A stretch of 64,000 bases of DNA from Minisyncoccia bacterium. GTDB taxonomy: Bacteria > Patescibacteriota > Minisyncoccia > Phycocordibacterales > Phycocordibacteraceae. The stretch lies in NCBI GenBank assembly GCA_050011835.1, contig JBEKII010000002.1:76173-140172 (forward strand). The letters are read 5' to 3'. The position numbers and the translations under genes were made by a program. Below the pieces are notes generated by a model. The model saw nothing but the letters and a program-made list of their open reading frames with translations, searched no databases and was not told where the DNA came from. Positions 2,480-19,034 of this stretch are shown in pieces. Every line of letters starts with the position of its first letter. Positions within the stretch are counted from its first letter, which is position 1.

Positions 2480-3481
2480 TTATCCTACTGCATTTTCGTA
2501 TCTTCTCAAATGCTTTGGATTATGACTGCCTATAATTAAGAAGTACCGTTTCATATCTCCGATACTATCAAGACGAACATCATGGCCGGTTATTCTTGAA
2601 TGAAGTCCGAATTTCCCCAGAAGAGCGTGCACAGAACGTCGCAACGGTTTCGAGGCACTTGTAAATGACAGTTTTTTGTAAGCGTACCATGTGTCTTTCA
2701 CGCGATACCGATGTGTAAAAATGGATCCATCTGTATCAATAAGTCCTCGTAGGCACGCCATCGCGAATTTTTTATCGCGCTTGATCCACACAGGAATGTC
2801 GAATTGTTGTCTGACTTTATTTCCTATCGGCAACCCTAATTCGTGCAAATATCGCACCAGTTCTGTTCTGGATACAACAATGTCGTTTACAGAATTTTTT
2901 GGTGAGTGATAAATACTCGGCGTTATTCTGAAAAGTTTCTTAATAAGATTCACTACAAATATGACATATTCCAAGTCATCGATATGATGAAGAGTAATTA
3001 TGATTTGATATTTGCTAATGCCACCATCACCCATCATGATGCCTATAAACTCAGCGAGTTTCTCACTGCGATGCGGTCTGCGAATATTTTTCGGCTCGAG
3101 GATAGGATTCCTTTTGAACTTTCCTGTAGTTTCCCACCATAGATGCCATTGTTCTTTCCGATACTTTTCGTTGCGTGGAATACAACCATATTTTTTTATG
3201 ACCGCAGCGAGACCCATTTTGCTGGCTTTTGTAATATGTGCATATGCATCACGAGTGCAAATGTTTTTAGGGATCGGAATACATATCCGTTCAGAGAGTA
3301 AATGAACGACAGTAAGCGGCATAGAAAATTTTTCTCTGCGCCAATCTCGGACAGCCCGCTCAGAGCAATGGGAAATACGAGCCATATCAGCAATCGTTAA
3401 TCTTTCCCCCACACGCTTTAAAAATGTCTGTTGTTCGCCGGAAGGAAATACGACTCTTTTATCTTTAAACGTTTTAGCCAT
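2480..3481 (-). CDS. LAGLIDADG-family (double-motif) endonuclease with an N-terminal HTH
   Basis: 333 aa. Two LAGLIDADG-like motifs (GIMMGDGGI and LRGLIDTDGS). HTH-like N-terminus (LTIADMARISHCSERAVRDW). Stop codon lies 9 nt upstream of tRNA-Ser, same strand. Confidence 0.7.
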   Translation of the reverse strand: MAKTFKDKRVVFPSGEQQTFLKRVGERLTIADMARISHCSERAVRDWRREKFSMPLTVVHLLSERICIPIPKNICTRDAYAHITKASKMGLAAVIKKYGCIPRNEKYRKEQWHLWWETTGKFKRNPILEPKNIRRPHRSEKLAEFIGIMMGDGGISKYQIIITLHHIDDLEYVIFVVNLIKKLFRITPSIYHSPKNSVNDIVVSRTELVRYLHELGLPIGNKVRQQFDIPVWIKRDKKFAMACLRGLIDTDGSIFTHRYRVKDTWYAYKKLSFTSASKPLRRSVHALLGKFGLHSRITGHDVRLDSIGDMKRYFLIIGSHNPKHLRRYENAVG

Positions 3482-3520: not shown

Positions 3521-3885
3521 TTAATGAGCGAGAGCGAGCGGGACGATGTGTTCGGCGCCGGATTTTTTGAGTACGTCAATTGCCGCTTGGAGCGTGGCGC
3601 CCGTAGTGAGGATGTCATCTAGAATAATGTATGTGCGCGCGGGATCGGCGCGGCGTGTCGCTTTAAACGCGCCGCGCATATTTTCTTCACGTTTACGGTG
3701 GGGGAGTGCGACCTGCGAATCCGTTTCGCGCAGGCGAATGAGCATATTGGGCTTAAGAACGAACTCGGGCGCGTTTCGGGTACGAGTTTCGGGGCGACAA
3801 GGGAGAGAAGGTTGTCGCTTGAAATATCGCGCACCGCTTTTTCATCCACGCGCGGAGGAAAGAGGAAGTCCAGCCAATGAGTCAT
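3521..3885 (-). pseudogene. comF: ComF-family phosphoribosyltransferase-domain protein, apparently frameshifted
   Basis: The C-terminal frame encodes LIRLRETDSQVALPHRKREENMRGAF...RTYIILDDILTTGATL, the ComF/PRTase PRPP motif. The N-terminal part (WLDFLFPPR...) is in another frame and lacks the zinc-finger cysteines. Confidence 0.45.
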
Positions 3886-3912
3886 AGTATCGTCGTGGTA
3901 TTATTCTCGCAT

Positions 3913-4986
3913 ATGTCGCTCCTCGGAGGCATCTTTACGAAGAAAGAGAAGAGCGTTCTTGGCGTTGATATCGGCTCTTCATCATTAAAAGTTGTACAGC
4001 TGCGCAAAGAACACGGCAAGGCGATACTCGAGACCTACGGCGAACTCGCGCTCGGTCCTTATGGCGGAGGAGATGTCGGGCAAGCGACAAATCTTTCTGC
4101 CGAGCAAATTGCCGAGACACTGAAAGATTTGTTGCGCGAAGCGAAGGTAACGACCACCAGTTGCGGTGTCTCCATACCGTATTCCCGTTCTCTGCTCACA
4201 CTGGTTGATTTGCCTTTCAGTAAAGACCCGAAAGAACAAAAGACCATTATTGAACTTGAAGCGCGCAAGTTTATTCCTATGCCGGTATCCGAAGTGCAGC
4301 TGGATTGGTTCATTGTGCCCGAAACGGACCCTTCGCAAAGCGCAGCTGTGCGAGGGAAAGTTGAAGTGCTCATTGTTGCGGTCCATAACGATGAACTTGC
4401 ATTACTTCAGAGTTCCATCACTGGCGCAGGACTCTCTGCAAGTTTCTATGAAATTGAGATTTTCAGCACGATACGCGCGGTTGTTGATGAACCGACGAAG
4501 CCGGTTATGGTGCTTGACATCGGAGCCGCCTCGACAAAGGTATATGTCGTTGAGCGCGGGATTGTGGCACTCTCGCACGCCATAAGTGCCGGAAGCCAAG
4601 ACATTACTCGCGCTATCGCGGTTTCTCATAACGTATCTATCGCCCAAGCCGAGGTCTTGAAAAAGGAAAAGGGCATTGCCAGCGACGACGGACCGAGCTC
4701 TTCCGAACTTGTTTTTTCACGCATCTTTTCAGAAGCGCGGCGCGTGCTTATGCAATATGAGACAGAGCATAAGAAATCAATTACGTCTATTATGCTCACG
4801 GGCGGCGGCGGAGTGACGAAAGAACTCGGGACGTACGCGAAAAATATTTTTTCCATAGACGTGCGTGTCGCCGACCCGTTCGCAAAAACCGAAGCACCGG
4901 CGTTTATGCGTTCAATTCTTGAAGAAATCGGTCCGGAATTCTCAGCCGCGGTTGGCATTGCATTGCGTAAACTTACAGAGGTGTAA
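3913..4986 (+). CDS. pilM: Type IV pilus assembly protein PilM (actin-like ATPase fold)
   Basis: Start at MSLLGGIFTKKEKSVLGVDIGSSSLKVV, the hallmark PilM N-terminus. First gene of the pilM-N-O-B-T-C cluster. Confidence 0.8.
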   Translation: MSLLGGIFTKKEKSVLGVDIGSSSLKVVQLRKEHGKAILETYGELALGPYGGGDVGQATNLSAEQIAETLKDLLREAKVTTTSCGVSIPYSRSLLTLVDLPFSKDPKEQKTIIELEARKFIPMPVSEVQLDWFIVPETDPSQSAAVRGKVEVLIVAVHNDELALLQSSITGAGLSASFYEIEIFSTIRAVVDEPTKPVMVLDIGAASTKVYVVERGIVALSHAISAGSQDITRAIAVSHNVSIAQAEVLKKEKGIASDDGPSSSELVFSRIFSEARRVLMQYETEHKKSITSIMLTGGGGVTKELGTYAKNIFSIDVRVADPFAKTEAPAFMRSILEEIGPEFSAAVGIALRKLTEV

Positions 4987-5049
4987 TTAAGACGTTTTGC
5001 ACAGATGCTATAAACGGTTCTTGCGCGGGTATCGTATACTAAAGACGAA

Positions 5050-5625
5050 ATGCTTCCTCCTGCAATACCAACGTCATTCGTTCCTCATTCAGCGTCCGCG
5101 GAGCGCAAATTTCATGCTGACTTTTCCGGCGTATACGGTTTTTTCTGTTACATCGTTCTCGCTGTTATCTTCGCACTCGCGCTCGGTGTCTTCTTCTACG
5201 GAAGAATCCTCTCGGCGAGCCAATCCTCTAATGATGCCGCGCTCGCGAAAGCCGAAGCGGCGATAAATCCGACGACGATTCAAGGATTTGTTCAGCTTCG
5301 TGATCGTCTTGCCTCAGGGGAAACGCTCCTTAAAAATCACATTGCATTTTCTGGGTTCTTCGCCGCGCTCGGGGCCGTTATGCCTTCCACCATCCGTTTC
5401 TCCTCGCTTCATCTCTCAATTGACGACACGGGAACAGCGACGCTTGGGGGAACGGGCATTGCCAAGAATTTCAATGCACTCGCGGCTACTTCTATGGTAT
5501 TCGCTCAAGATGGGCGTATCAAGGATGCCATTTTTTCCAACATTGCCATTAATGCAAAAGATAGCTCCGTATCTTTTACACTTGCCGCGACGCTTGACCC
5601 GAAACTCATCGTTTTTTCTCCATGA
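5050..5625 (+). CDS. pilN: PilN-like pilus assembly protein (single TM)
   Basis: 191 aa with one N-terminal TM helix. Position follows pilM. Confidence 0.55.
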   Translation: MLPPAIPTSFVPHSASAERKFHADFSGVYGFFCYIVLAVIFALALGVFFYGRILSASQSSNDAALAKAEAAINPTTIQGFVQLRDRLASGETLLKNHIAFSGFFAALGAVMPSTIRFSSLHLSIDDTGTATLGGTGIAKNFNALAATSMVFAQDGRIKDAIFSNIAINAKDSSVSFTLAATLDPKLIVFSP

Positions 5626-6185
5626 ACAATCACATTCTTCCCACGCTCGCGCTCCTCATTGCCATCGGCATATTTTTTACTTATGTAAATCCCACATGGT
5701 CCGGTCCAATAGCGACGGCAAAGGCCGCTATCGCGAGTGATGGCCAGGCGCTTGCTGCCGCGAGCCAATACGCTGCACAACAAAACGAACTTGCTTCCGC
5801 CCGCAATGCGATTGCCCCCGCGGATATCGCGCGGCTCACCACGTTTTTGCCTGATTCGGTAAACAATGTCGGACTCATTCTTGATTTGAATGCGCTTGCC
5901 GCACGCTCCGGGATCTCGCTCTCCAACGTTAATATCACTGTAAATGCAAATAACGCAGGCGCCGCAAGTTCCGCCACCGGAGCTCTTCCGGTTTCCGGTG
6001 CGAGTCCAGTAGGTTCGGCTGATTTTTCTCTTTCCGCAAAAGGCACGTATACGGCGTTCCTGGCGTTTCTTGCCGGGATAGAGAAGAGCGAGCGCCTTCT
6101 CGATGTTCGTGACATTACCGTGGAGGGGTCCGATACGGGCGTCTACACATACCAAATGACACTGCGCCTTTACTGGCTGCAGTAA
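5622..6185 (+). CDS. pilO: PilO-like pilus assembly protein
   Basis: 187 aa with an N-terminal TM helix. Its start overlaps the pilN stop by 4 nt. Confidence 0.5.
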   Translation: MNNHILPTLALLIAIGIFFTYVNPTWSGPIATAKAAIASDGQALAAASQYAAQQNELASARNAIAPADIARLTTFLPDSVNNVGLILDLNALAARSGISLSNVNITVNANNAGAASSATGALPVSGASPVGSADFSLSAKGTYTAFLAFLAGIEKSERLLDVRDITVEGSDTGVYTYQMTLRLYWLQ

Positions 6186-6198
6186 GCGATTTTATATT

Positions 6199-6492
6199 AT
6201 GAAATCAAAAAATCTCGTACTCATTATCGTCATCGTACTCATCGCTGCAGCCGGCGTTTACTGGTATTTCTTTACCGGAACGGGGAATCAGCCCACTCTC
6301 TTAATTGGAGGGACGGAGAACCAAGCACAAGCCCAGTTTGAGACGCTGGTCAGCGAGCTGACGCCGATTTCGTTTGATACCAGCATCTTTTCGGACTCGC
6401 GTTTCAATGCGCTCGTTGATATTTCAACGCCGATCACTCCGGAACCCATCAGCCGTCCCGATCCTTTTGCAGTCATTGCTAGCGTAGATTGA
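6199..6492 (+). CDS. Small single-TM protein in the pilus operon (PilP-like accessory?)
   Basis: 97 aa, N-terminal TM helix. Sits between pilO and pilB. Confidence 0.35.
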   Translation: MKSKNLVLIIVIVLIAAAGVYWYFFTGTGNQPTLLIGGTENQAQAQFETLVSELTPISFDTSIFSDSRFNALVDISTPITPEPISRPDPFAVIASVD

Positions 6493-6501
6493 AATTGAGT
6501 A

Positions 6502-8292
6502 ATGAATCTTCTTGGATTATTTGTTGACAAGGGTTTTCTTTCTCCACGCGACCGTGCGGTAGTTGAAGCCGAACTCGCGAAGAAGCGCCCGTTCGCTGAA
6601 ATACTTGCCGAGTATGGCGTATCGCTCTCCGATGCGCTTGCAGAAGTGGGGAAAACCTACGGACTTCCGACGCGCCTTCTCGGTGACCCGCCCGCTAATG
6701 AAGAGGTGTTTAACTACGTTCCCTTCGACTCCGCTCGTCATTATGGATTTGTGCCGCTCGATATCGTGGATGGTGCGCTCGAGGTTGGCATTACCGACCC
6801 CGACAACATTGAGGCGCTCGACGCGCTGCAATTTATCTCCGGCAAAACCGGCACCCCTTATAAAATTTTTCTCATCACAAAACAGGATTTTGATCGTGTG
6901 CTCGATGCCTATCAAAATCTTTCGGGTGAAATCGGTAAAGCGCTTACTGAATATGAGACGACGACGAAGCCTGTTGCCGCCGAAACACAACAGAAGACCG
7001 GCGCACCCGCATCGCCACCTGAGACGCCCGCGTTTGAAGAAGAAGAGCTCGTTCTCACCGGTCCGCGCGAGGCGTTGAAGGAGGATGCCCCGGTAACGAA
7101 AATCGTCTCAACGATATTAAGATACGCCATTGAGGGTCATGCTTCTGATGTACATATTGAGCCCTCACCGAAGAAAACGCGAGTTCGTTTCCGCATGGAT
7201 GGCGTTCTCCATACGTCGTTGGAGTTGCCAGCGAAGGTGCACGAAGCGGTTGTCGCGCGTGTCAAAATACTTGCGAAACTACGCCTGGACGAAAAGCGGA
7301 AACCGCAAGACGGGCGCTTCTCGGCGACTGTTGAAAAGCGCCGCATTGACTTCCGCGTCTCCACTTTTCCGACGGAGTATGGCGAGAAGGTCGCGATGCG
7401 CATCCTTGACCAGTCGGCCGCAACGGCGACGCTTGAATCGGTCGGATTTTCGAGCGCAAATCTTGCCGTAGTCCGCGAAATGATGAAAATCCCTTACGGC
7501 ATTATCCTCATCGCTGGGCCAACCGGTTCGGGCAAATCGACAACGCTCTTTGCGATGCTTTCTGAACTTGACCGCGAAGCGGAGAATGTCGTGTCGCTTG
7601 AAGATCCCGTTGAATACGAAATTTCCGATGTCTCGCAGAGTCAGGTGCGGCCCGAGATCGGCTACACTTTCGCAAACGGGCTTCGTTCCATCTTGCGCCA
7701 GGACCCGGACGTTATTATGGTCGGCGAAATTCGCGATAAGGAAACCGCAGCTCTCGCCGTCCAGGCGGCGCTCACGGGACACCTCGTCTTCTCCACCATT
7801 CATACGAATACCGCTGCTGGTGCAATTCCACGCCTCGTCGATATGGGCGTTGACCCTTTCCTCATAGCGCCGACTTTGGTCGCCATCATCGGACAGCGAT
7901 TAGTTCGTCGATTCTCCGAGGGAGGAGGCAAATCTTTTCCGATTACGGATAGTCTCCGGACGTTTCTTGACAGGGAATTTATTGATTTGCCGAAAGAATA
8001 CCGAGATAAGCTCCCGCCATTTAAGGAGTTTTATCATGCGAGCCCGACCGCGCAGAGTCCTAGCGGTATCCGCGGTCGCACCGCCGTCTTTGAGATACTA
8101 CGTATGGATAAAAATCTTGAACAGGTCGTGCTCAAGGAGCCGGTAGAAGAAAAGATTTATGCCGCTGCGCGCATGGGTGGTATGCTTACTATGCGCGAAG
8201 ATGCGATCGTGAAAGCACTTACCGGCGAGATTCCCTTTGAGGAAATCAACACACTCGGCGGAGAACTTTTCCCCGAAGAGGAAGAAGATTGA
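6502..8292 (+). CDS. pilB: Type IV pilus assembly ATPase PilB (GspE family)
   Basis: 596 aa. Walker A GPTGSGKSTTL, Asp box, His box, and an N-terminal GSPII_E_N-like domain. Confidence 0.9.
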   Translation: MNLLGLFVDKGFLSPRDRAVVEAELAKKRPFAEILAEYGVSLSDALAEVGKTYGLPTRLLGDPPANEEVFNYVPFDSARHYGFVPLDIVDGALEVGITDPDNIEALDALQFISGKTGTPYKIFLITKQDFDRVLDAYQNLSGEIGKALTEYETTTKPVAAETQQKTGAPASPPETPAFEEEELVLTGPREALKEDAPVTKIVSTILRYAIEGHASDVHIEPSPKKTRVRFRMDGVLHTSLELPAKVHEAVVARVKILAKLRLDEKRKPQDGRFSATVEKRRIDFRVSTFPTEYGEKVAMRILDQSAATATLESVGFSSANLAVVREMMKIPYGIILIAGPTGSGKSTTLFAMLSELDREAENVVSLEDPVEYEISDVSQSQVRPEIGYTFANGLRSILRQDPDVIMVGEIRDKETAALAVQAALTGHLVFSTIHTNTAAGAIPRLVDMGVDPFLIAPTLVAIIGQRLVRRFSEGGGKSFPITDSLRTFLDREFIDLPKEYRDKLPPFKEFYHASPTAQSPSGIRGRTAVFEILRMDKNLEQVVLKEPVEEKIYAAARMGGMLTMREDAIVKALTGEIPFEEINTLGGELFPEEEED

Positions 8293-8321
8293 CGTAAGAA
8301 TGCGCTATACTCATTGATAAA

Positions 8322-8753
8322 ATGTCCTATCACATCTATATCGTTGACGATGATAAATTTCTTCTCGACCTTTATGCGGTCAAGTTTGAGAATGCCGGTC
8401 ATAAGGTGAGCATGTTTGGTAGCGGCGAGGATTTCCTGGCGACTCTTCGGAAAACAGATGCGCCGCCGCCCGATGCCATTCTTCTTGACCTTATTATGCC
8501 GGGCATCGGTGGTTTCGGAGCTCTTGAGGCGATGCGGAAAGAGAATCTCGCGCGGGGCGCAAAGGTTATTATTCTCTCAAATCAGGGCCGGGACTCTGAC
8601 ATAGAAAAAGCGAAGCAGCTTACCGCCGATGGTTATATTATAAAGGCATCCGCGATTCCTTCCGAGGTAGTTGCCGAGACCTTGCGCATTATTAATGCGG
8701 ATCACGCCGCCGTTGCCACTGGTGAAGTGACCAATGAAGAAAATCACTCGTAA
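8322..8753 (+). CDS. Single-domain response regulator (CheY-like receiver)
   Basis: 143 aa. IYIVDDD...LDLIMPGIGGF receiver signature with no output domain. Confidence 0.75.
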   Translation: MSYHIYIVDDDKFLLDLYAVKFENAGHKVSMFGSGEDFLATLRKTDAPPPDAILLDLIMPGIGGFGALEAMRKENLARGAKVIILSNQGRDSDIEKAKQLTADGYIIKASAIPSEVVAETLRIINADHAAVATGEVTNEENHS

Positions 8754-8755
8754 TT

Positions 8756-9826
8756 ATGACCATGATTGCCGATAAGCGTCTCGAGGAACTTCTTGATATC
8801 GTCGTCGCGGAAAATGGTTCAGACCTGCATATTTATGCCGGCGGACCGCCAGTGCTTCGCGTTGCAAGCGCACTCGTCTCGGTCTCGAAATATCCAACAT
8901 TCTCTAATGAAGAGACCGAGGCGATGCTCAAAAGTATCGTGCCTGAAGGTCGCTGGGGCTCATTTAAAGAAAATCAGACCATTGATATTTCCTACGCACA
9001 CAAGAAAACGAATACGCGTTTCCGCGTCAATGGTTATTACGTACAAGGAACAGTCGCTCTCGCGCTCCGCCTCATTCCCCCCGCGGTTCAAACATTCGCA
9101 GAGTTGAATTTGCCCCCCATACTTGAGGTATTCACGCAACGCAAGCAAGGATTCTTCCTTGTCGTGGGGCCGGTGGGGCAGGGTAAGTCAACCACGCTTG
9201 CCGCTATGGTTGACAACATTAACAATTCGCGCACTGAACACATTCTTACCATTGAAGACCCGGTTGAGTATGTCTTTACGCCGAAGAAGTCGCTTATTCA
9301 TCAGCGTGAGGTCCATATCGATACTCCCGATTTCCGCACAGCGTTGGAAAGCTCATTTCGTGAAGACGTGGACGTTATCATGGTCGGTGAGATGCGCGAC
9401 CACGATACTATTTCTTCGGCGGTGACCGCCGCAGAGACCGGCCACCTCATTTTCTCCACGCTCCACACCAACAACGCTGCGCAAACCATTGACCGTATTA
9501 TCGATATGTTTCCTGCCGAGCAGCAAAACCAGGTGCGCGTACAGTTAGCTGGCTCGCTGGCAGGCATCTTTTCCCAACGGCTTATTCCGCGTATTTCGGG
9601 CGGACTCATTCCGGCTTATGAACTTCTCATTAATAACAATGCGGTCAGTACGCTTATCCGGGATTCAATGACTCACGAGATTGACACAGTGATTCAAACA
9701 TCTTCGCAGGAAGGCATGATTGACATAAATCGTTCGCTCGCCGAGCTCGTCAAGCGGGGAGAAGTGACGATTGAACACGCCTACGAGCGCGCTTTGGATT
9801 CCAAGACCTTTGAACGGTACCTCTAA
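8756..9826 (+). CDS. pilT: Twitching-motility (retraction) ATPase PilT
   Basis: 356 aa. Walker A GPVGQGKSTTL. PilT-length hexameric ATPase. Confidence 0.9.
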   Translation: MTMIADKRLEELLDIVVAENGSDLHIYAGGPPVLRVASALVSVSKYPTFSNEETEAMLKSIVPEGRWGSFKENQTIDISYAHKKTNTRFRVNGYYVQGTVALALRLIPPAVQTFAELNLPPILEVFTQRKQGFFLVVGPVGQGKSTTLAAMVDNINNSRTEHILTIEDPVEYVFTPKKSLIHQREVHIDTPDFRTALESSFREDVDVIMVGEMRDHDTISSAVTAAETGHLIFSTLHTNNAAQTIDRIIDMFPAEQQNQVRVQLAGSLAGIFSQRLIPRISGGLIPAYELLINNNAVSTLIRDSMTHEIDTVIQTSSQEGMIDINRSLAELVKRGEVTIEHAYERALDSKTFERYL

Positions 9827-9838
9827 ATCTATTTATTT

Positions 9839-11044
9839 ATGCTCTTCAAATATCACGCGATTGACCAGGACGGACACGGGCGGGGGGGAACCATTGAAGC
9901 TCTTTCGCAGGAAGTCGCTGTTTCTTCGCTCCAGCGGCGCAATCTCATCATCTCGTCGATTGAATCCGTAGAGAAACATTCGTTCCTTAATTTTAATATT
10001 CCATTCATTGGTAGAGTGTCCAACAAGGATATCGTTATTCTCTCGCGTCAGATAGCGACCTTGTTTGAGGCACAGGTATCTGCGCTCCGTGTCTTTCGTC
10101 TTCTCGCTTCCGAGGTTGACAATAAGCAGCTCGCCACCATTCTCTCAACGATCGGCGATGATCTCCAGGGCGGAAGTCCAATCAGTAAAGCACTTTTACG
10201 CCATCCGAAGGTCTTTTCAGCATTTTATGTGAATATGGTTCGCGCGGGAGAGGAATCCGGCAAATTATCGGAGACATTTGTATATCTCGCCGATTATCTC
10301 GACCGTTCGTATGACGTTATGAGCAAGGCGGAAAATGCGCTTATTTACCCGATTTTTGTCGTCGTGGTCTTCTTTGTCGTCATGGCGCTTATGTTGACGC
10401 TCGTTATACCGAAAATCAGCGCGGTTTTGGTTGATTCCGGCCAAGCGGTACCGATTTATACCTCTATTATCATCGGTTTTTCAAACTTTCTCGTCCACTA
10501 TAGTATTTTTATTCTTGCCGCACTTATCGCGGGCGGCTTTTATGTATGGCAGTTAAGGAAGACCGAACACGGGAAACTCATTCTTGATCGTCTAAAGCTC
10601 TCGGTGCCGTATGTCGGCGACCTATATAAAAAACTGTATCTCTCGCGTATCGCGGACAATTTCTCCACAATGCTTCATTCTGGAGTTTCGGTTGTTGAGG
10701 CGATAGATATCACTGGCTCCGTTGTGGGTAATGCCGCGTACGCGGCCGTGCTTGCAGAGGTCGGGAAGGAAGTAAAAGGAGGTTCTTCCATATCCGACGC
10801 CCTTGCACGGCATCCGGAAATTCCCGGTATTATGGTCGCGATGACGAAGGTCGGCGAAGAAACAGGCGAACTCTGGAATATCCTTACCACACTCGCCAAA
10901 TTCTATAATCGCGAAGTGGCGAATGCCGTGGATACGTTGGTTGGTCTTATTGAGCCGATTACGATCGTGATTCTTGGTCTCGGTGTCGGCATACTCGTCG
11001 CCGCGGTGCTTCTTCCCATCTATAATCTTGCCAGTGCGATCTAG
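9839..11044 (+). CDS. pilC: Type IV pilus platform protein PilC (GspF family)
   Basis: 401 aa. Two T2SS_F repeats and multiple TM helices. Confidence 0.85.
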   Translation: MLFKYHAIDQDGHGRGGTIEALSQEVAVSSLQRRNLIISSIESVEKHSFLNFNIPFIGRVSNKDIVILSRQIATLFEAQVSALRVFRLLASEVDNKQLATILSTIGDDLQGGSPISKALLRHPKVFSAFYVNMVRAGEESGKLSETFVYLADYLDRSYDVMSKAENALIYPIFVVVVFFVVMALMLTLVIPKISAVLVDSGQAVPIYTSIIIGFSNFLVHYSIFILAALIAGGFYVWQLRKTEHGKLILDRLKLSVPYVGDLYKKLYLSRIADNFSTMLHSGVSVVEAIDITGSVVGNAAYAAVLAEVGKEVKGGSSISDALARHPEIPGIMVAMTKVGEETGELWNILTTLAKFYNREVANAVDTLVGLIEPITIVILGLGVGILVAAVLLPIYNLASAI

Positions 11045-11122
11045 GCGGAGTTTATCCACACCCTTGTTTTTAGCCATAAAATATGGGTATACAATCTAGT
11101 CATTAACCGAATATAATTAATT

Positions 11123-11599
11123 ATGTACAACAATCGTTTCCGGGGCTTCACTCTTATAGAATTACTCGTCGTAATCGCCATCATCGGCATCCTTTCGGCG
11201 GTCGTGCTCGCGTCCTTGAATACCGCTCGTTCTAAGGGCAATGACGCAGCCATCCAATTGGACCTTGCGACCATTCAGACCCAGGCGGAAATTTATTATG
11301 GGAATAATTCGAACAAGTACAACTCGGACGGTACGACTGGCGTTGCTGGTATCGCTTGCCCGGGAGTCGGTACCGCCACGCTCTTTGGCGATACGACCAT
11401 CGCGAATGCAATCAATGGCGTAAAGACTGCCAGCAGCGGTAACGTTGCATATTGCTATGCGGCTGCCAATGGGTCTGCCTATGCTGTTCAGGCGCCACTG
11501 AAGACCAATTCATCACTTTATTGGTGCGTTGACAGTACCGGGGTTGCTTCCTCAACCGCTGTTCAATTCTCCGGCGCTACGACTAAGTGCGGTACATAG
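11123..11599 (+). CDS. pilA: Type IV pilin (prepilin), paralog 1
   Basis: N-terminal RGFTLIELLVVIAIIGILSAVVLASLNTARSKGNDAAIQ, the class III signal and methylation motif. C-terminal Cys pair. Confidence 0.85.
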   Translation: MYNNRFRGFTLIELLVVIAIIGILSAVVLASLNTARSKGNDAAIQLDLATIQTQAEIYYGNNSNKYNSDGTTGVAGIACPGVGTATLFGDTTIANAINGVKTASSGNVAYCYAAANGSAYAVQAPLKTNSSLYWCVDSTGVASSTAVQFSGATTKCGT

Positions 11600-11613
11600 T
11601 TTTAACCGTGTAA

Positions 11614-12156
11614 TTGAATATGATTCCTATTCGCTTTCGCGGCTTCACCCTTATTGAATTACTCGTCGTAATCGCCATCATCGGCATCCTCTCGGCGGTC
11701 GTGCTCGCGTCCTTGAATACTGCCCGCTCAAAGGGTAACGATGCGGCTATCCAGTCCGACCTCAACACCGTTCAAACTGAAGCCGAAATAGCGTATGGCG
11801 GAGGCGGTACAGCAGGTCTCACCAATACGTACAATTCCACTGGCTCGGCCGTCTCGAGCTCCGCCTGTTCTGGAGTTACGACAGCAGGAACTATTTTCGC
11901 AGACACGACAATTCAGAACGCATTGAAGGGCGCAAAGAGCGCCGCAGGAGGCAGCAACGACAGCGACTGCGGCATTACCAGTACTGGTGGTGCGTATTCC
12001 ATTGCGGCGCCACTTGTGTCAGGTAAGGCGTGGTGCATTGACTCAACGGGTGTGGCTCGCGGTGCAACAGTTAACGGTCTCCCATATACAGCACTCATAG
12101 GTACGGTTGCAGCCGGTGGTGCCCATATCACAAGTGGGCAAACAACCTGCAATTGA
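11614..12156 (+). CDS. pilA: Type IV pilin, paralog 2
   Basis: Same N-terminal ~40 aa. The first ~90 nt of DNA are nearly identical to paralog 1. Confidence 0.85.
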   Translation: MNMIPIRFRGFTLIELLVVIAIIGILSAVVLASLNTARSKGNDAAIQSDLNTVQTEAEIAYGGGGTAGLTNTYNSTGSAVSSSACSGVTTAGTIFADTTIQNALKGAKSAAGGSNDSDCGITSTGGAYSIAAPLVSGKAWCIDSTGVARGATVNGLPYTALIGTVAAGGAHITSGQTTCN

Positions 12157-12198
12157 ATTAGCCCATAAATCAGAAGCTCTCTTCTGGTTAGAGGAAAA

Positions 12199-12237
12199 GA
12201 AATCCACTGTTCCTAACTGTGGATTTCTTTTTTTTGG
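12199..12237 (+). terminator. Rho-independent terminator between pilin 2 and pilin 3
   Basis: aaatccactgt-tcctaa-ctgtggattt followed by a T9 run. Confidence 0.55.
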
Positions 12238-12255
12238 TGTTATACCTATAAGCAT

Positions 12256-12765
12256 ATGAATCCAAAAAATAAGAACCAGGGCTTCACCCTTATTGAATTA
12301 CTCGTCGTAATCGCCATCATCGGCATCCTCTCGGCGGTCGTGCTCGCGTCCTTGAACACCGCTCGTTCTAAGGGTGGCGATGCTGCAATTCAGTCCGATC
12401 TCAATACAATCCGGATAGAAGCAGAGATTTTCTATGGGAGCAACACTAATTCCTATAACACGGGCTCAACCCTCGCATACAGTAATTGTTCAACGCATAC
12501 AGATGCTGGTTCAATTCTCGCTGACACAACCATCCAAAACGCCCTTAAAGGTGCAAAAAATACTTCAGGCAGTGATAGCGACTGCGGTATAACTTCTACA
12601 GCGTATTCCATTGCGGCGCCACTTGTGTCAGGTAAGGCGTGGTGCATTGACTCAACGGGTGTGGCTCGCAATTCAACCGCCAACGGTCTCCCATATACAG
12701 CACTCATAGGTACGGTTGCAGCCGGTGGTGCCCATATCACAAGTGGGCAAACAACCTGCAATTAA
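12256..12765 (+). CDS. pilA: Type IV pilin, paralog 3
   Basis: Same prepilin N-terminus. The C-terminal ~60 aa are nearly identical to paralog 2 (AYSIAAPLVSGKAWCIDSTGVAR...GQTTCN). Confidence 0.85.
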   Translation: MNPKNKNQGFTLIELLVVIAIIGILSAVVLASLNTARSKGGDAAIQSDLNTIRIEAEIFYGSNTNSYNTGSTLAYSNCSTHTDAGSILADTTIQNALKGAKNTSGSDSDCGITSTAYSIAAPLVSGKAWCIDSTGVARNSTANGLPYTALIGTVAAGGAHITSGQTTCN

Positions 12766-12791
12766 TTTAATAATAGTTTAATATAAATATT

Positions 12792-13250
12792 ATGATATAT
12801 AAATATAACAATCGCGCTTTCACCCTTATTGAATTACTCGTCGTAATCGCCATCATCGGCATCCTCTCGGCGGTCGTGCTCGCATCGCTGAATGCCGCTC
12901 GCTCAAAAGGCAGTGATGCGGCTATTCAGTCAGATCTGGATGGCATCCGAACACAAGCCCAGATCTATTACGGCAATAATGGCAGCAGTTACGGTTCGAA
13001 TGCCGCTGTAGAAAGCAATTGTAGCGCGACCGATAATATGTTCAGCGACCCAACAATCACAAAACAAGTGCAAGGAGCAGATACGGCAAATGGTCCCTCC
13101 GGTTCTGTAGTGTGCAACGTAGCTGCCTCTGGTACGGCTTATGCGGTGTCAGCAGACCTTGTCGCGACACCCGGAACGTATTATTGCGTTGACAGTACCG
13201 GCGTGAGCACGACAACGACAACGGCTCTGGACACCAACACAAATTGCTAA
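12792..13250 (+). CDS. pilA: Type IV pilin, paralog 4
   Basis: Same prepilin N-terminus, with a divergent C-terminal domain. Confidence 0.85.
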   Translation: MIYKYNNRAFTLIELLVVIAIIGILSAVVLASLNAARSKGSDAAIQSDLDGIRTQAQIYYGNNGSSYGSNAAVESNCSATDNMFSDPTITKQVQGADTANGPSGSVVCNVAASGTAYAVSADLVATPGTYYCVDSTGVSTTTTTALDTNTNC

Positions 13251-13294
13251 TTAAAAATATTTTCAAGTGACGCGACTCCGCTCCAGGCGGGATT

Positions 13295-14083
13295 GTGTTA
13301 CGTTATACTAATTCCTACATGATTCTCCTGCCGGTCGCACTGCTGTTCATTCTTGGTGCCATTGTCGCGAGTTTTGTCGGAGTACTCGTTGCGCGACTCA
13401 ATACCGGTCAAGGATTTCTTACAGGGCGCTCTCATTGTGATGCGTGCAATGCACCGCTTGCGCCATCTGCGCTCATACCGGTTATTTCCTATATTGTCTC
13501 TAGCGGACGCGCACGTTGTTGCGGTGCGCATCTTTCGTGGCATGCGCCACTTTCCGAGTTCTTGCTCGGCGGACTCTTCGCGCTTTCATATCTAAAACTC
13601 GGCCTTTCAGGCACATTGGTATGGATGCTCCTTTCGCTTTCAGTCCTCCTTGCGCTCACTCTTTATGACCTTGCGCATCAGATACTGCCGCCCGTGCTTC
13701 TCGCGCCATTTGTCGCAGTGAGCGCTGTAACTGGATTTCTTCTTGCGCCGTCTCTCTCACTATTTTTGAGCACTCTCTTTATCGCTTTTCTTATCGCGCT
13801 CTTTCTCGCGTTCATTCATTTTTTTTCGCGTGGCCGTTATATGGGTCTTGCAGATGCGCCATTTGCTTTCGGCCTCTCACTTCTCGCCGGACCGTTCGCA
13901 TTCCCCGGTTTCGTTTTTTCATTCTGGATCGGTGCCGTTGTCGGGATAATTATATTGTACAAGAGACCTCGTGGCTCTAGAATGGGAGTTGAGGTACCGT
14001 TCGCGCCTTTTCTGGCCGCCGGTTTCCTTCTCGCTTATTTTATTCAATGGAATCCATTCGTCTTCGTCGCGGCTTTACACTGA
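13295..14083 (+). CDS. pilD: Prepilin peptidase PilD (A24 family)
   Basis: Tetracysteine motif CDACNAP...CCGAH and polytopic membrane topology. Start could instead be at 13319. Confidence 0.8.
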   Translation: MLRYTNSYMILLPVALLFILGAIVASFVGVLVARLNTGQGFLTGRSHCDACNAPLAPSALIPVISYIVSSGRARCCGAHLSWHAPLSEFLLGGLFALSYLKLGLSGTLVWMLLSLSVLLALTLYDLAHQILPPVLLAPFVAVSAVTGFLLAPSLSLFLSTLFIAFLIALFLAFIHFFSRGRYMGLADAPFAFGLSLLAGPFAFPGFVFSFWIGAVVGIIILYKRPRGSRMGVEVPFAPFLAAGFLLAYFIQWNPFVFVAALH

Positions 14084-14709
14084 TCGAGCTTATGGTCGTG
14101 GTGGCGATCATCGGTATCGTTTCGTTAATCGTGTTGACCAACCAGAGCACATTTAATAAAACGCTCATTCTCCAGAACACCGCGTACGATATCGCGCTTA
14201 CGCTCCGCGATGCCGAGACCTATGGTCTTGGAAGTCGCGCCATTGGCATAACCGCGAATGCGGGATATGGTGTTCACTTTCAAAACGCGCCAACCACGTC
14301 TTTCATTCTTTTTGCCGATACTTATCCCTCAACTCCGAGTGCGTCCAATTGCCATGGAGTGCCGATTGACGGTGCAAGCGCGCCAGACGCGCAGCCCGGC
14401 GACTGCATCTATACGTCGAGCCAAGATCAAAAAATAAATGCTTATACACTCGGGAATGGAATCACGGTGAGTGATTTCTGCGTATTCAACGGCAGTTGGT
14501 CGTGCGCGCAGAACAATGGGTTGACTTCGCTCGACATCGTTTTCGCGCGCCCGAATCCGGCTACGTTCATAAGCGTGAACGGTTCGTATTCGGCGGCACC
14601 CGCTGTAACTGCGGCATGTCTCACCGTGAGCGCATCCGAAGGAGGTAAGCGCTTTGTTTCGGTCGCGTCGTCAGGAGAGATAACTGCGAATGCTACTTCA
14701 TGCCCATGA
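14047..14709 (+). CDS. Minor pilin / pseudopilin
   Basis: RRGFTLIELMVVVAIIGIV prepilin N-terminus. Overlaps the pilD 3' end. Confidence 0.65.
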   Translation: MESIRLRRGFTLIELMVVVAIIGIVSLIVLTNQSTFNKTLILQNTAYDIALTLRDAETYGLGSRAIGITANAGYGVHFQNAPTTSFILFADTYPSTPSASNCHGVPIDGASAPDAQPGDCIYTSSQDQKINAYTLGNGITVSDFCVFNGSWSCAQNNGLTSLDIVFARPNPATFISVNGSYSAAPAVTAACLTVSASEGGKRFVSVASSGEITANATSCP

Positions 14710-15914
14710 CACTGAAAATCAGAGGATATACGCTTGTGGAACTTATTGTCGCGGTCGGGCTTTTCGCGCTCATTATGACGCTCACAGCCGGCGCCTATAT
14801 TATCGTTATAGGTCTGACTGCACGGGCACAGGGCACTGCTTCCAGCATAGATAATCTCTCCTTCGCACTCGAAACGATGACGCGCAATATTCGAACGGGT
14901 ACTGGATACAATTGCGGCGGTTTGGGTGATTGCTCGAGCGGTTCCAGCAACTTTTCTTTCAGGAATGCACAGGGAACGGCGACGAGTTACTCGCTCTCGA
15001 ACGGAGTTATTATGACGCAAAACACCATTCCCCTCACCGACCCTTCGGTGAAGGTCACTTCACTTATGTTTTATGCGTCCGGCACCAAGACCAGCGACAA
15101 CTATCAACCTAACGTTACCATTGTCGTTTCGGGCACGGTTTCGTCCGGCCGGGGGACGACCCAATCCTTTTCCGTAGAAACGGGAGCGACAATGCGCGGA
15201 TCCGATATCGCCGGTATTGTCAGCAGCGGCGGCTCTGTAATCTATACCGCTGGGCAATCAGGCAATTGGACTGTGCCATCGGGAGTAACTTCTGTCATCG
15301 TAACGATGTGGGGCGGTGGGGGATCGGGAAGTTCTTACGCTGGCGGCGGCGGAGGCGGTGCAGGAGTTATTTATCAGTATCCTCTTACCGTAACTCCAGG
15401 TCAAATTTCTTACGCGGTAGGCTATGGAGGAGCGGCAGTTACAGGACAGGTTGACGGGAATGATGGACAACAGACCACTTTTGGTTCCTTAATCGCGTCT
15501 CCCGGATTAAGGGGACATAACTATAATACCCCAACAGATCGTGGCTATGGAGGTCGCGGAGGTAATGCCTCAGATAGCACTAACACAGGCACAGGTGGAC
15601 TCTGGGGTTATTCCGCCCATTACGCTGGTTACGACGGAAGTTCATACCCCACTACTTTATTTGGAGGGGGTGGAGGTGGTTATGGTGGTTACGCGGGAGG
15701 TGACGATGGCGTAGGCGGTGCTAGTTATAGCAATACTCATGCGGCTGCCGGAGCCACAATTGGAGGTGGAGGTGGAGCAAGTTACGGAACAGGCGGTGCT
15801 GGAAGTAATACCATTGCGAGTGCGGGAACAGATGGCGGCGGCGGCGGCGGATCGTGGACGGGTTCTTATTATTCTGGTGCTGGTGGTGACGGGAAGATAA
15901 TCATAAGCTGGTAA
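14700..15914 (+). CDS. Large minor pilin with a Gly-rich C-terminal domain
   Basis: RGYTLVELIVAVGLFALIM prepilin-like N-terminus. The C-terminal 200 aa are GGGGSG/GGYGGY-rich. Confidence 0.6.
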   Translation: MPMTLKIRGYTLVELIVAVGLFALIMTLTAGAYIIVIGLTARAQGTASSIDNLSFALETMTRNIRTGTGYNCGGLGDCSSGSSNFSFRNAQGTATSYSLSNGVIMTQNTIPLTDPSVKVTSLMFYASGTKTSDNYQPNVTIVVSGTVSSGRGTTQSFSVETGATMRGSDIAGIVSSGGSVIYTAGQSGNWTVPSGVTSVIVTMWGGGGSGSSYAGGGGGGAGVIYQYPLTVTPGQISYAVGYGGAAVTGQVDGNDGQQTTFGSLIASPGLRGHNYNTPTDRGYGGRGGNASDSTNTGTGGLWGYSAHYAGYDGSSYPTTLFGGGGGGYGGYAGGDDGVGGASYSNTHAAAGATIGGGGGASYGTGGAGSNTIASAGTDGGGGGGSWTGSYYSGAGGDGKIIISW

Positions 15915-15918
15915 AAAT

Positions 15919-16497
15919 ATGACTACAAAAGGATTCACCCTCATCGAGACCATGGTTGCCATCACGATTCTCACTGTCGCGATTGCGGGAGCTTTTTTTA
16001 CCGCGAATAGTTCACTCGTCGCTGCAGAAATTGCGCGCGACCAACTTACCGCTTCCTACCTCGCGCAAGAGGGCATCGAGTATGTGCGCATGATGCGCGA
16101 TGACGAATATCTCAAGGCTTATCAGGTAGGCGGCACGAACGTTTCGACTACCGCGTGGAATAATTTCTTAAATGGGTCTGATGCCGCATCGATTACCCAG
16201 TGTCGCGGTACGATAAGCAGTCCGATAACCTGTACGCTTGACCCATCGCGCTCTATGGGCTCGGGAAGTGGTTCTTCGCTTCAGCCCTGTTCTGGTTCTG
16301 CGTGTATACCACTCTATCTAGCGAGCACGGGCATTTATAACGAGCAAAGTTCAGGAACGAAAACATCTTTCACGCGCACCATACAAGCAGTCGATATTTC
16401 CGCGAGCGATGAACGTATTGTCTCAAAAGTGTCATGGAGTTTCCATGGCATCTCGCATTCGGTAACTATCACCGACCATCTCACGCCATGGCAATGA
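15919..16497 (+). CDS. Minor pilin / pseudopilin
   Basis: MTTKGFTLIETMVAITILTVAIAG prepilin N-terminus. Confidence 0.65.
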   Translation: MTTKGFTLIETMVAITILTVAIAGAFFTANSSLVAAEIARDQLTASYLAQEGIEYVRMMRDDEYLKAYQVGGTNVSTTAWNNFLNGSDAASITQCRGTISSPITCTLDPSRSMGSGSGSSLQPCSGSACIPLYLASTGIYNEQSSGTKTSFTRTIQAVDISASDERIVSKVSWSFHGISHSVTITDHLTPWQ

Positions 16498-17009
16498 AAA
16501 ATAAAAACCAGAAAGGTTTCGCACTTCTCGTCGCCGTCATCTTTATGTCGGTGATGCTTACACTTGGTCTTGCGCTCGCTTCCCTCGGCTATAAACAGGA
16601 ACTTCTCGCGTCAACGGCCATTGAATCGCAGTATGCATTTTATGCCGCCGATGCCGGTCTTGAGTGCGCTCTCTATGCTGATCAACAACTGGACTTATTT
16701 GATTATGCTTCGCATAGTGTGGCCACTCCTCCTAATACAATTACCTGCGATGGCGTATCGGCGACGCAATTACCTGGAAGTTATTCATATACTACTGGCA
16801 CCAATGGCACACTATCTGTCTCCGAACGTCTCTCGCTCGATTCAAACACACACTGCGCAATTGTAACGATTTATAAATACAGTACACCGCAGTCGCCAAC
16901 AAATTTTGTTACCTACCTTTTCTCCCAGGGCTTCGACGTTCCCTGCACTACCGTGGCGAATCCGGGAGGAACGCGCTTTGTATCGCGGGGTATCAGCGCC
17001 CATTATTAA
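16488..17009 (+). CDS. PilX-like minor pilin
   Basis: MAMKNKNQKGFALLVAVIFMSVMLTLGLALA. The start is placed at the internal Met so it does not overlap the preceding gene. Confidence 0.5.
   Translation: MAMKNKNQKGFALLVAVIFMSVMLTLGLALASLGYKQELLASTAIESQYAFYAADAGLECALYADQQLDLFDYASHSVATPPNTITCDGVSATQLPGSYSYTTGTNGTLSVSERLSLDSNTHCAIVTIYKYSTPQSPTNFVTYLFSQGFDVPCTTVANPGGTRFVSRGISAHY

Positions 17010-19034
<2,025 letters not shown>

Follow-up and report, generated by a model that had tools for sequence, protein, structure and literature searches.

The four tandem prepilin genes between pilC and pilD are probably best explained as a single-locus array of old paralogues which share one assembly machine and carry blocks of near-identical DNA left by gene conversion, with recombination not serving as a programmed switch. 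The window, that is, the whole stretch of 64,000 nucleotides that was analysed, belongs to a metagenome-assembled genome (MAG) of an uncultured ultrasmall bacterium labelled Minisyncoccia (CPR/Patescibacteria) in the records of the source proteins, and it contains a type IV pilus locus without a secretin. The host is assigned as a Kaiserbacteria/Paceibacteria-like Minisyncoccia bacterium, and the four genes as the predicted pilin array of that single locus. The gene order is pilM, pilN, pilO, pilB, a response regulator gene, pilT, pilC, p1 and p2, a terminator, p3 and p4, pilD and the minor pilin genes. PilM, PilO, PilB, PilT, PilC, PilD and the N_methyl pilins were identified by Pfam (3877-11044 and 13295-14083); the Peptidase_A24 domain of PilD scored 24.3 bits, slightly under the Pfam cut-off. 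This is a multi-pilin locus of an ordinary kind and does not reveal a new mechanism. The four prepilin genes are intact and lie, with their boundaries, on the plus strand as follows.

9839..11044, + strand: pilC, platform protein, upstream boundary of the array (Pfam T2SSF, 1.4e-55)
11123..11599, + strand: p1, prepilin of 158 aa, leader MYNNRFRG, mature protein beginning FTLIELL, four Cys, rare globular-domain type (ORF; Pfam N_methyl, 6e-10)
11620..12156, + strand: p2, prepilin of 178 aa, leader MIPIRFRG, C-terminal extension within a predicted disulfide-bonded D-region (ORF; Pfam N_methyl)
12256..12765, + strand: p3, prepilin of 169 aa, leader MNPKNKNQG, globular type as in p2 (ORF; Pfam N_methyl)
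12792..13250, + strand: p4, prepilin of 152 aa, leader MIYKYNNRA with Ala replacing Gly at -1 (ORF; Pfam N_methyl)
13295..14083, + strand: pilD, prepilin peptidase, downstream boundary of the array (Pfam A24_N_bact, 4.6e-22)

An earlier sequence-only reading had placed four tandem pilin paralogues at 11123-13250, and this was confirmed by four plus-strand open reading frames at these positions, all matching Pfam N_methyl (PF07963) at 32-40 bits versus a cut-off of 21.2. For p2, the ATG at 11620 is a likelier start than the TTG at 11614, in agreement with the 178-aa NCBI/JGI protein. Each gene has a start codon, a leader, a cleavage site and a full alpha-1 helix, and the class III signal comprises a short basic leader, Phe at +1, Glu at +5 and a hydrophobic alpha-1N, with cleavage predicted at RG/FTLIELL (p1 and p2), QG/FTLIELL (p3) and RA/FTLIELL (p4). 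Ala at -1 was seen in just 2 of 134 pilins, and p4 may therefore be processed less efficiently by the peptidase. The GAST content of the pilins is 46-54% (46.7% in p1) versus 28% in PilB, PilT and PilC; together with their size and their location beside pilC, this would indirectly favour a role as major filament subunits. The AF2 model of p2 (pLDDT 95) shows an alpha-1 helix and a beta-sheet, the lollipop fold of a long alpha-1 helix packed on a four-stranded antiparallel beta-sheet was recognised, a profile search matched Neisseria PilE across almost its full length, and the four Cys (residues 83, 117, 139 and 177 of p2) do not vary among 66 homologues. All four genes are complete and can be translated independently, and their products are type IVa-like prepilins.

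The four proteins share an identical mature N-terminal stretch of 25-31 residues (residues 1-31 are the same in p1-p3, and p4 has the single change T26A) and differ in their exposed globular domains, which fall into three old types with 40-79% identity among the four genes. The p4 domain is 63-72% identical to the last-position pilins of six related loci (L002, L038, L031, L049, L028 and L069), and p4 is orthologous to the pilin that the clade conserves at the end of its arrays. The globular parts of p2 and p3 are 79% identical, p3 is 63% identical to its orthologue L069_2, and the closest match of the p1 domain is the position-1 pilin of L076 (57%). By this comparison p2 and p3 represent a rarer pilin type with an extended D-region, and p1 a third type.

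At the DNA level, the N-terminal similarity is confined to a short block:

11147..11220, + strand: 5' homogenised block in p1, coding for mature residues 1-25, with 3 synonymous differences
11641..11717, + strand: 5' homogenised block in p2, 77 nt identical to p3 and 65 nt to p4
12280..12356, + strand: 5' homogenised block in p3
12819..12883, + strand: 5' homogenised block in p4, 65 nt exact

The 64-kb window contains the 65-nt block exactly four times (at 11147, 11644, 12283 and 12819). The copies in p2, p3 and p4 do not differ, whereas that in p1 deviates at 3 positions; 100 shuffled sequences yielded no match. The mismatch-free run is 77 nt for p2/p3 and 65 nt for both p2/p4 and p3/p4, while the p1 block extends over 74-77 nt with three synonymous changes relative to the other copies. 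Identity begins 0-4 nt upstream of the Phe+1 codon, i.e., at the prepilin cleavage site and not at the start codon, and past the block nearly every third base is mismatched. The first ~90 nt of the genes had been read as near-identical including the class III signal; a shared block does exist, at 65-77 nt, but the signal part has to be taken out of it, as only 9-15 of 24-27 nt are identical in the leader codons. Annotators should note that the identical N-termini are no evidence of recent duplication.

The second block is restricted to p2 and p3:

11992..12154, + strand: 3' shared block in p2, coding for the last beta-strands (3-4) and the whole C139-C177 D-region (dS 0.047)
12601..12763, + strand: 3' shared block in p3 (dS 0.047)
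12061..12072, + strand: 12-nt patch holding all six 3'-block differences, RGATVN in p2 versus RNSTAN in p3 (12670-12681)

Segments 11992-12160 and 12601-12769 are 95% identical, and the identity stops no more than about 5 nt past the stop codons. The 163 coding nt contain six mismatches, every one of them inside the single 12-nt patch (12061-12072 / 12670-12681), which is flanked by 69 and 82 perfectly identical nt. The near-identical 3' ends and the differing middles of p2 and p3 were both upheld, the middles having only 61% nucleotide identity. The patch with its six differences is not accounted for by a single simple conversion tract.

Judging from synonymous sites, both blocks are likely to stem from gene conversion and not from constraint on the protein or from a recent duplication. 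By the NG86 method, dS between p2 and p3 was 0 in the 5' block and 0.047 (~0.05) in the 3' block, with pS at 0.90 (saturated) in the middle; Fisher tests of block versus middle gave 1.6e-9 (5') and 2.8e-12 (3'). For conserved residues, the share with the same codon is 75-100% over mature codons 1-24 and 23-50% over codons 25-40, although protein conservation is equal in both. Rare codons of the 5' block (TTA 0.08, TTG 0.12, GTA 0.16) stand at the same positions in every copy; with an expected same-codon rate of 0.305, codon usage alone would give 24 identical codons out of 24 with P = 1.8e-13. The minor pilins of the same locus have only 6/16, 3/5 and 4/9 codons in common. The cleavage site and the stop codon mark where identity ends, and the leaders and flanking sequences are unrelated. 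Recombination between the paralogues has shaped them, the blocks being identical at synonymous sites while equally protein-conserved neighbouring codons are saturated. We strongly infer that the DNA identity of the blocks represents footprints of short-tract, non-reciprocal homologous recombination, i.e., gene conversion, between tandem copies. We rejected recent duplication followed by fast divergence, since the middle is saturated at synonymous sites and neither the leaders nor the flanks are related.

Comparison with the clade extended these observations. In 80 related loci, one tandem pilin gene was found in 22, two in 45 and three in 6, and arrays of two to four pilins are the rule in more than 50 independent MAGs. 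Within-genome identity over nt 1-72 was 0.915 versus 0.823 when genomes were permuted (0 of 5000 permutations reached 0.915), and the longest exact 5' run had a median of 38 nt within genomes versus 15 nt between them. An internal control, nt 121-165, showed no within-genome excess (0.529 versus 0.539, P = 0.81). Codon bias was rejected on the basis of this control and of the rare codons that are common position by position. There are strong grounds for regarding the 5' tract as concerted evolution over the whole clade. In two-pilin genomes, 80 of 90 best foreign matches occupied the array position of the query pilin, and the foreign match always ranked above the genome's own paralogue; the array order of L069 is equivalent (p1-like, p2/3-type, p4-type). 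These comparisons indicate that the paralogues are old and that their globular domains are orthologues tied to array position. Best match by array position was used here instead of single-linkage clustering of head domains, which at 50% identity placed 109 of 134 in one cluster and was too coarse for defining types. The 3' block was the sole case among 69 within-genome pilin pairs. When metagenome contigs were scanned with a 30-nt piece of it, no match was obtained, and a scan with the p3 protein returned no more than 7 distant loci, all of which lacked a pair resembling p2 and p3. We found nothing specific in the literature on concerted evolution or gene conversion of CPR pilins.

The pattern of a block that is the same within genomes and different between them could also arise from a co-evolving regulator-target pair, if the 5' block were the target of a genome-specific trans-acting factor (an antisense RNA, a small RNA or a regulator that binds DNA or RNA), or from an mRNA feature for co-translational targeting. 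We consider selection of this kind at the nucleotide level very unlikely. No antisense copy of the block was present on either strand of the 64-kb window with up to 3 mismatches, no Rfam family was found in the region, and the length of the exact run varies from 10 to 140 nt among genomes, as stochastic conversion tracts predict; moreover, the 3' block of p2 and p3 would be beyond its reach.

Another source for the p2/p3 mosaic is allelic replacement, in which p2 and p3 would be recent duplicates, one of which had its middle (the alpha-beta loop) replaced by imported DNA from a diverged relative, the conserved ends having provided the homology arms. In agreement with this, the middles of p2 and p3 are as diverged from each other as each is from orthologues of other species, and CPR pili have been proposed to be DNA-uptake devices. 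The p2/3-type pilin is also patchy relative to PilC similarity (ranks 13-61 of 82), which would lend weak support to horizontal exchange; it is treated as weak because the PilC tree is star-like at ~80% identity. However, a recent tandem duplication should have carried the leader codons and the spacer along, both of which are unrelated here; the 5' block is equally common to p4 and p1, which lack the 3' identity; and the within-genome 5' excess is clade-wide, so that recurrent conversion already accounts for the 5' end. Allelic replacement is therefore judged improbable. Import of a foreign middle segment could equally have given the mosaic, which would still be recombination with another donor.

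Putative expression signals were found upstream of p1 and between p2 and p3:

11088..11117, + strand: promoter-like site upstream of p1, TATACA-18-TATAAT (10/12, a consensus match only)
12168-12189: smaller hairpin ahead of the terminator-like hairpin
12191..12238, + strand: strong hairpin followed by a T-run, resembling an intrinsic terminator (folding, own scan)

Folding of the whole 111-nt spacer between p2 and p3 (12150-12260) gave -31.8 kcal/mol (z = -4.0), and the hairpin at 12191..12238, at a 17-nt inverted repeat with 94% complementarity, contributes a structure of -16.8 kcal/mol with the T-run immediately after it (own scan). A consensus terminator scan overlooked this hairpin, whose stem is A/T-rich; folding and our own scan detected it. 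Because a hairpin with a T-run follows p2, two expression units are suggested, one of p1 and p2 and the other of p3, p4 and the downstream genes.

The sequence-only reading had regarded the four genes as a substrate for recombination-driven pilin variation. The similarity of the blocks is far beyond chance, and their identity at synonymous sites shows that the array has served as a substrate for homologous recombination, if perhaps only over evolutionary time; this part of the claim is supported. A dedicated, ongoing variation system of the Neisseria kind was not supported, given the complete copies, the lack of G4 motifs and the colinear contigs. In Neisseria, the pilS donors of pilE are silent, promoterless cassettes without the 5' constant region, and a G4 element together with a small RNA drives frequent conversion. 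As there, pilin sequence appears to have been transferred non-reciprocally between homologous copies, giving mosaics with conserved segments around variable ones, but none of the copies in this locus is incomplete, conversion affects the conserved 5' end itself, and no within-population variants were seen. Three contigs are colinear and differ by 1 and 2 SNPs with no recombinant junction, and at least two come from separate JGI samples; for a sister array of four pilins, three samples gave the same sequence. The three assemblies may derive from related samples.

Programmed variation, whether Neisseria pilE/pilS-like or Moraxella Piv-like, would have neighbouring donors rewrite the expressed gene at high frequency, so that the surface of the pilus would change among cells of one population. 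In its favour, the homologous copies stand in tandem and are conserved at the ends but variable in the middle, there is one clear p2/p3 chimeric event, and 2 of 3 between-sample SNPs are nonsynonymous changes in p1. Nevertheless, we think it very improbable. All four copies are full-length, each with start codon, leader and cleavage site, and no silent 5'-truncated cassette is among them. No G4 motif ((G3+N1-7)x4) occurs on either strand of 9800-14200. All copies are direct, with no inverted pilin segment, the sole inverted repeat of at least 16 nt within the array being the terminator hairpin; the locus genes scanned (3877-19034) include no recombinase, and the nearest one lies 11 kb away at 24705-26267, near a DGR. 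The array thus has neither the inverted pilin segment nor the adjacent invertase of the Moraxella tfpQ/tfpI-Piv switch. Position-specific globular orthologues across species are the opposite of rapidly shuffled cassettes, and the near-identity of the arrays in three assemblies and the uniqueness of the 3' block among 69 paralogue pairs likewise speak against frequent rewriting.

As the data are metagenome-assembled, alleles of co-existing strains might have been stitched in tandem, or repeats mis-joined. A repeat can break assemblies, and contig L001 does begin at window position 11177, within the 5' block of p1. Such an artefact is extremely unlikely, however, as the exact repeats are no longer than 82 nt, under typical read and final k-mer lengths, and each gene has a unique leader and spacer. 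A second contig reproduces the order p2-p3-p4-pilD, a third one, from another sample, has pilC-p1-p2, and arrays of this kind are general in the independent MAGs.

The array resembles several known systems in part. Streptococcus sanguinis, a monoderm, has two major pilins, PilE1 and PilE2, in one heteropolymeric type IV pilus (PMC10628169, PMC6497953). Shared with it are an envelope without an outer-membrane secretin, one assembly machinery, and major-type paralogues with an identical N-terminal alpha-1 portion and differing exposed heads; co-resident pilins with identical alpha-1N occur here too (residues 1-31 in p1-p3; p4 with T26A). In contrast, S. sanguinis has two near-identical genes whose products form a heteropolymer, whereas here four genes of three old types, with 40-79% head identity, are known from the genome of an uncultured CPR bacterium. 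In Thermus thermophilus, two pilins, PilA4 and PilA5, make functionally different filaments, for natural transformation versus twitching (PMC7203116), and the machinery assembling both has been modelled (PMC13039148). Thermus, however, is a diderm with a secretin and two known filament types, and sequence identity is only 15%. The saccharibacterium TM7x uses two major pilins, of T4P-1 and T4P-2, in host binding and motility (PMC11623550). It is likewise a CPR bacterium with more than one major-type pilin, and these are small, GAST-rich, T4a-like lollipop proteins, but its major pilins are in separate loci with their own assembly ATPases, unlike the four here in one locus with one machinery within the window. 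Concerted evolution of bacterial paralogues by gene conversion is exemplified by PMC6053082; as in that case, within-genome paralogues are closer than between-genome orthologues over a defined segment, which here is limited to 65-77 nt of anciently diverged genes.

Most likely, the array provides several functionally distinct pilins with one machine and one helix core. The suggestion in the sequence-only reading of functionally distinct filaments fits the old, position-specific orthology of the globular domains; a division into competence and adhesion would be conjectural. The preferred reading would work as follows. Very probably, a recurrent conversion tract is restricted to the 65-77 nt coding for alpha-1N, and in a rare, recent tract the last ~163 coding nt (beta-strands 3-4 and the D-region) were copied between p2 and p3. 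One PilD/PilC/PilB/PilT machine would process and polymerise all four subunits, and thanks to the homogenised alpha-1N each paralogue would still fit this machine and a filament core common to all, so that the pilins may either co-polymerise into mosaic filaments or form alternative filaments with different surfaces. These filaments may function in host or surface attachment and possibly in DNA uptake. Recombination between copies would be a by-product of tandem homology, giving occasional chimeras and copy-number changes.

A more speculative proposal, to which we assign a low but not negligible probability, is that the pilC-pilD segment is a cassette-exchange site in this CPR clade, where the alpha-1N block, together with pilC and pilD, would provide portable arms of homology. 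Entire pilin heads or gene modules could then be swapped, duplicated or deleted, including by means of DNA imported through the pilus. The window would represent an L069-like three-gene array to which one more p2/3-type module, bringing its own terminator, had been added, and it would also display a fresh p2/p3 3' conversion and the excess of nonsynonymous polymorphism in p1. If true, such exchange would retune the hosts or surfaces that an episymbiont can bind.

Type IV pili are the best-supported host-attachment device of CPR/Patescibacteria, perhaps also functioning in DNA uptake, and their subunits are almost uncharacterised outside Saccharibacteria. Our analysis shows that, in a large Kaiserbacteria/Paceibacteria-like clade, pilC is typically followed by two major-type pilin paralogues, and at most by four, which are old and specific to their position, and that gene conversion very probably keeps only the core helix segment of these pilins uniform, with chimeric heads occasionally possible. 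The four pilins described here would be concrete candidates for addressing whether such bacteria build mosaic or alternative filaments.

The four prepilin genes (p1-p4) stand in tandem between pilC and pilD, within a complete type IV pilus (T4P) locus that runs along the + strand of the window, as delineated from ORFs and Pfam matches:

3877-4986, +, pilM
5050-6185, +, two small genes, the first in the usual place of pilN, the second with a weak PilO match
6502-8292, +, pilB
8322-8753, +, response regulator gene
8756-9826, +, pilT
9839-11044, +, pilC
11123-11599, +, p1, Pfam N_methyl
11620-12156, +, p2, Pfam N_methyl, ATG start (the mechanical ORF call begins further upstream, with the TTG at 11614)
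12256-12765, +, p3, Pfam N_methyl
12792-13250, +, p4, Pfam N_methyl
13295-14083, +, pilD
14047-17009, +, four minor-pilin-like genes, followed by ligA and gatCA

The first small gene gave no PilN match despite its place, and none of the scanned ORFs gave a secretin domain match. The exact p1-p4 proteins are recorded as MAG proteins of a "Minisyncoccia bacterium" (MGD0328475-78, on a 169,853-bp contig), which places the organism in the CPR/Patescibacteria; the nearest PilC relatives come from Kaiserbacteria/Paceibacteria MAGs (71-85% identity). One minor-pilin-like gene (14700-15914) fuses an N_methyl N-terminus with a glycine-rich domain of 220 residues (Pfam Gly_rich_2, 1.8e-13), and its product is a candidate tip adhesin.

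All four pilins pass the Pfam N_methyl cut-off, and a sequence profile search matches Neisseria PilE across almost the full length. For p2, a high-confidence AF2 model (pLDDT 95) has the pilin lollipop shape: residues 11-59 form a helix, the alpha-beta loop contains a short helix, the sheet has four strands, and two additional strands are at the C-terminus. Pilin GAST content, a criterion applied to Saccharibacteria pilins (PMC11623550), is 46-54%, as against 28% for PilB, PilT and PilC, which fits exposed filament subunits. At cleavage position -1, p4 carries Ala (codon 12816-12818) in place of the near-universal Gly, as do only 2 of 134 major-type pilins of related loci; p4 may be processed less efficiently or have a special role.

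The sequence blocks shared by these genes are real and statistically solid. Each of the four pilin genes carries one copy of a 65-nt block that occurs nowhere else in the window, with no mismatch in p2, p3 and p4 and three in p1; shuffles of the sequence gave no match to it. The sequence-only reading had taken this near-identity to include the signal codons, and that part did not stand: the leaders match at only 9-15 of 24-27 nt, and identity begins 0-4 nt ahead of the Phe+1 codon. From there it runs for 77 nt in p2/p3, for 65 nt in p2/p4 and p3/p4, and for 74-77 nt in p1 with three synonymous changes, beyond which almost every third base is mismatched. The common 3' block of p2 and p3 was borne out (11992-12160 versus 12601-12769, 95% identical), as was the difference between their middles. 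Identity stops a few nt past the stop codons, which themselves differ. Given the cysteine positions (four cysteines are invariant in 66 homologues) and the p2 model, the 3' block corresponds to the last strands and the complete C139-C177 D-region, and the divergent middle to the alpha-beta loop. In T4a pili, the alpha-beta loop and the D-region are both surface regions.

Within the 163 coding nt of the 3' block there are only six differences, all in one 12-nt patch (12061-12072 versus 12670-12681) flanked by 69 and 82 identical nt. They span four consecutive codons (RGATVN versus RNSTAN), a clustering too tight for independent point mutations; the patch may be an island that escaped conversion, a second micro-tract or the result of selection. 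In p3, it gives rise to an N-S-T motif.

Codon choice bears on whether protein constraint could account for the 5' block. At same-residue positions, the paralogues use the identical codon in 75-100% of cases over mature codons 1-24 and in only 23-50% over codons 25-40, even though 13-15 of those 16 residues are conserved. The block mixes common and rare codons (Leu CTT, TTA, CTC, TTG; Val GTC, GTA, GTG); from the codon usage of the window itself, the probability of 24 identical codons out of 24 is 1.8e-13. For the same residues, minor pilins of the locus use matching codons at only 6/16, 3/5 and 4/9 positions. By Nei-Gojobori estimates, p2 and p3 have dS = 0 in the 5' block and 0.047 in the 3' block, and a saturated pS of 0.90 with dN = 0.23 in the middle (Fisher test against the middle, 1.6e-9 and 2.8e-12 for the 5' and 3' blocks, respectively). 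The middle divergence equals that of either gene from its orthologues in other species (L069 and L028). Neither the leaders nor the upstream spacers and downstream sequences are related, so that the identities reach only as far as homology does, which is what gene conversion between old paralogues predicts. Recent tandem duplication would not yield identities bounded by unrelated leaders and flanks.

A PilC-anchored scan, with one genome per species, gave 80 related loci, in which copy number was taken as the major-type pilins directly downstream of pilC. There was one in 22 loci, two in 45 and three in 6; four were found only in the window. A sister CPR locus, L082 (4104-7046), found via the closest p2 homologue, also has four tandem pilins (166, 174, 170 and 172 aa), just one of them of the p2/p3 type, and its pilC and pilins are separated by an inserted NYN-domain gene in the opposite orientation. 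Within-genome identity was compared with that of pilins permuted among genomes (5000 permutations for nt 1-72).

Identity of pilin genes within genomes and after permutation
nt 1-72: within genomes 0.915, permuted 0.823; observed value reached in 0/5000 permutations
nt 73-120: within genomes 0.745, permuted 0.694
nt 121-165: within genomes 0.529, permuted 0.539; P = 0.81

The result for nt 121-165 rules out that the 5' identity stems from a codon or GC bias of the genome as a whole. The longest exact 5' run has a median of 38 nt within genomes versus 15 nt between genomes; thus, together with the identity excess, concerted evolution of the segment encoding alpha-1N is general in the clade. Outside the 5' region, only one of 69 paralogue pairs stands out, p2/p3 with its 82-nt run. 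The two runs next in length (44 nt in L010 and 36 nt in L011) start at the 140-nt cut and merely continue the 5' identity, and no run in the remaining pairs exceeds 17 nt.

The pilin heads (globular domains) are old and specific to array position. Among two-pilin genomes, 80 of 90 heads have their best foreign match at the same position of the array, and the best foreign match always exceeds the genome's own paralogue; mean head identity is 63% to same-position foreign, 48% to other-position foreign and 41% to own paralogues. Of the pilins in the window, p4 is orthologous to the conserved pilin of the last array position (63-72% identity), p2 and p3 are of a rare type with a C-terminal extension, also seen at L069 position 2, L028 position 1, L025 and L082c, and p1 is of a third, rare type. 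L069 has the same order (p1-like, p2/p3-type, p4-type), and the window therefore looks like an L069 array with a second, old p2/p3-type copy.

The earlier suggestion that the paralogues serve recombination-driven pilin variation is not upheld for a programmed system, and a Neisseria-like one fails the defining tests of silent copies and G4. None of the four genes is silent or truncated, no G4 motif or inverted pilin segment was found around the array, and no recombinase was found among the scanned locus genes (3877-19034); the nearest (24705-26267) is 11 kb off. Two further contigs are colinear with the window, one (JGI 3300038429) reaching from a partial p1 past p4 with a single mismatch over 11,589 nt, the other (JGI 3300037843) spanning pilC, p1 and a partial p2 with 2 mismatches over 1,410 nt. 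Likewise, a second sample carries the L082 array without any difference over 3.5 kb, and a third carries it with 1 mismatch in 1 kb. As far as consensus assemblies can tell, this argues for a stable array. The only three differences in about 13 kb covered by the JGI contigs are at 10962 (pilC), 11259 and 11585 (p1). Both p1 changes are nonsynonymous (L46S and K155E, respectively), which is suggestive of diversifying pressure, although the number is tiny; L46S restores the Ser of p2-p4 via a different codon.

The nearest recombinase belongs to a region (21422-26267) that may be an integrated element:

21422-21493, tRNA-Met
21633-24581, diversity-generating retroelement (DGR)
21633-22754, -, DGR reverse transcriptase, Pfam RVT_1 7e-29
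23676-24581, +, ORF with the DGR variable region at its 3' end
24705-26267, -, large serine recombinase

The 30-nt, 80% repeat of the tRNA-Met 3' end at 24737-24766 could also be chance. The DGR template (23109-23239) and variable region (24449-24579) form a 131-nt inverted repeat, 79% complementary, with 18 of 27 mismatches at template adenines; a bAvd-like gene is annotated beside the reverse transcriptase on the second contig. Elsewhere in the window, a LOOT RNA (Rfam RF03000, 29159-29277, 84 bits, well over the gathering score) lies just upstream of a 606-aa ORF with a peptidoglycan-binding domain (29337-31157), a LAGLIDADG-domain ORF (2480-3481, -) directly adjoins tRNA-Ser (2380-2471, -), and a tRNA-Ile with anticodon TAT (55693-55767) represents an uncommon bacterial route to reading AUA.

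Expression signals, which we grade as weak evidence, include a promoter-like site upstream of p1 and two hairpins in the 99-nt p2-p3 spacer. The second is long, with a 17-nt inverted repeat as arms (-16.8 kcal/mol in our own scan) and a T-run at its end; for the 111-nt stretch as a whole, the folding energy is -31.8 kcal/mol (z = -4.0). By the same criterion, terminators in related loci come after the last or sole pilin (11/22 single-pilin loci and 11/45 position-2 pilins, versus only 1/45 after position 1), and the array may therefore consist of two modules, p1-p2 and p3-p4.

These findings are best explained by a multi-pilin T4P locus in which short-tract gene conversion keeps the core-helix segment of four old, intact paralogues uniform, and a single recent conversion homogenised the p2/p3 D-region. 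With alpha-1N uniform, all four pilins should be acceptable to a single machine and a single filament core. The locus might be likened to either of two closest precedents, unranked here: the PilE1/PilE2 heteropolymer of S. sanguinis (PMC10628169) or, alternatively, the PilA4/PilA5 two-filament system of Thermus (PMC7203116). Possibly, the pilC-pilD interval is a hotspot of cassette exchange; if so, it would matter for host-range adaptation in CPR episymbionts.
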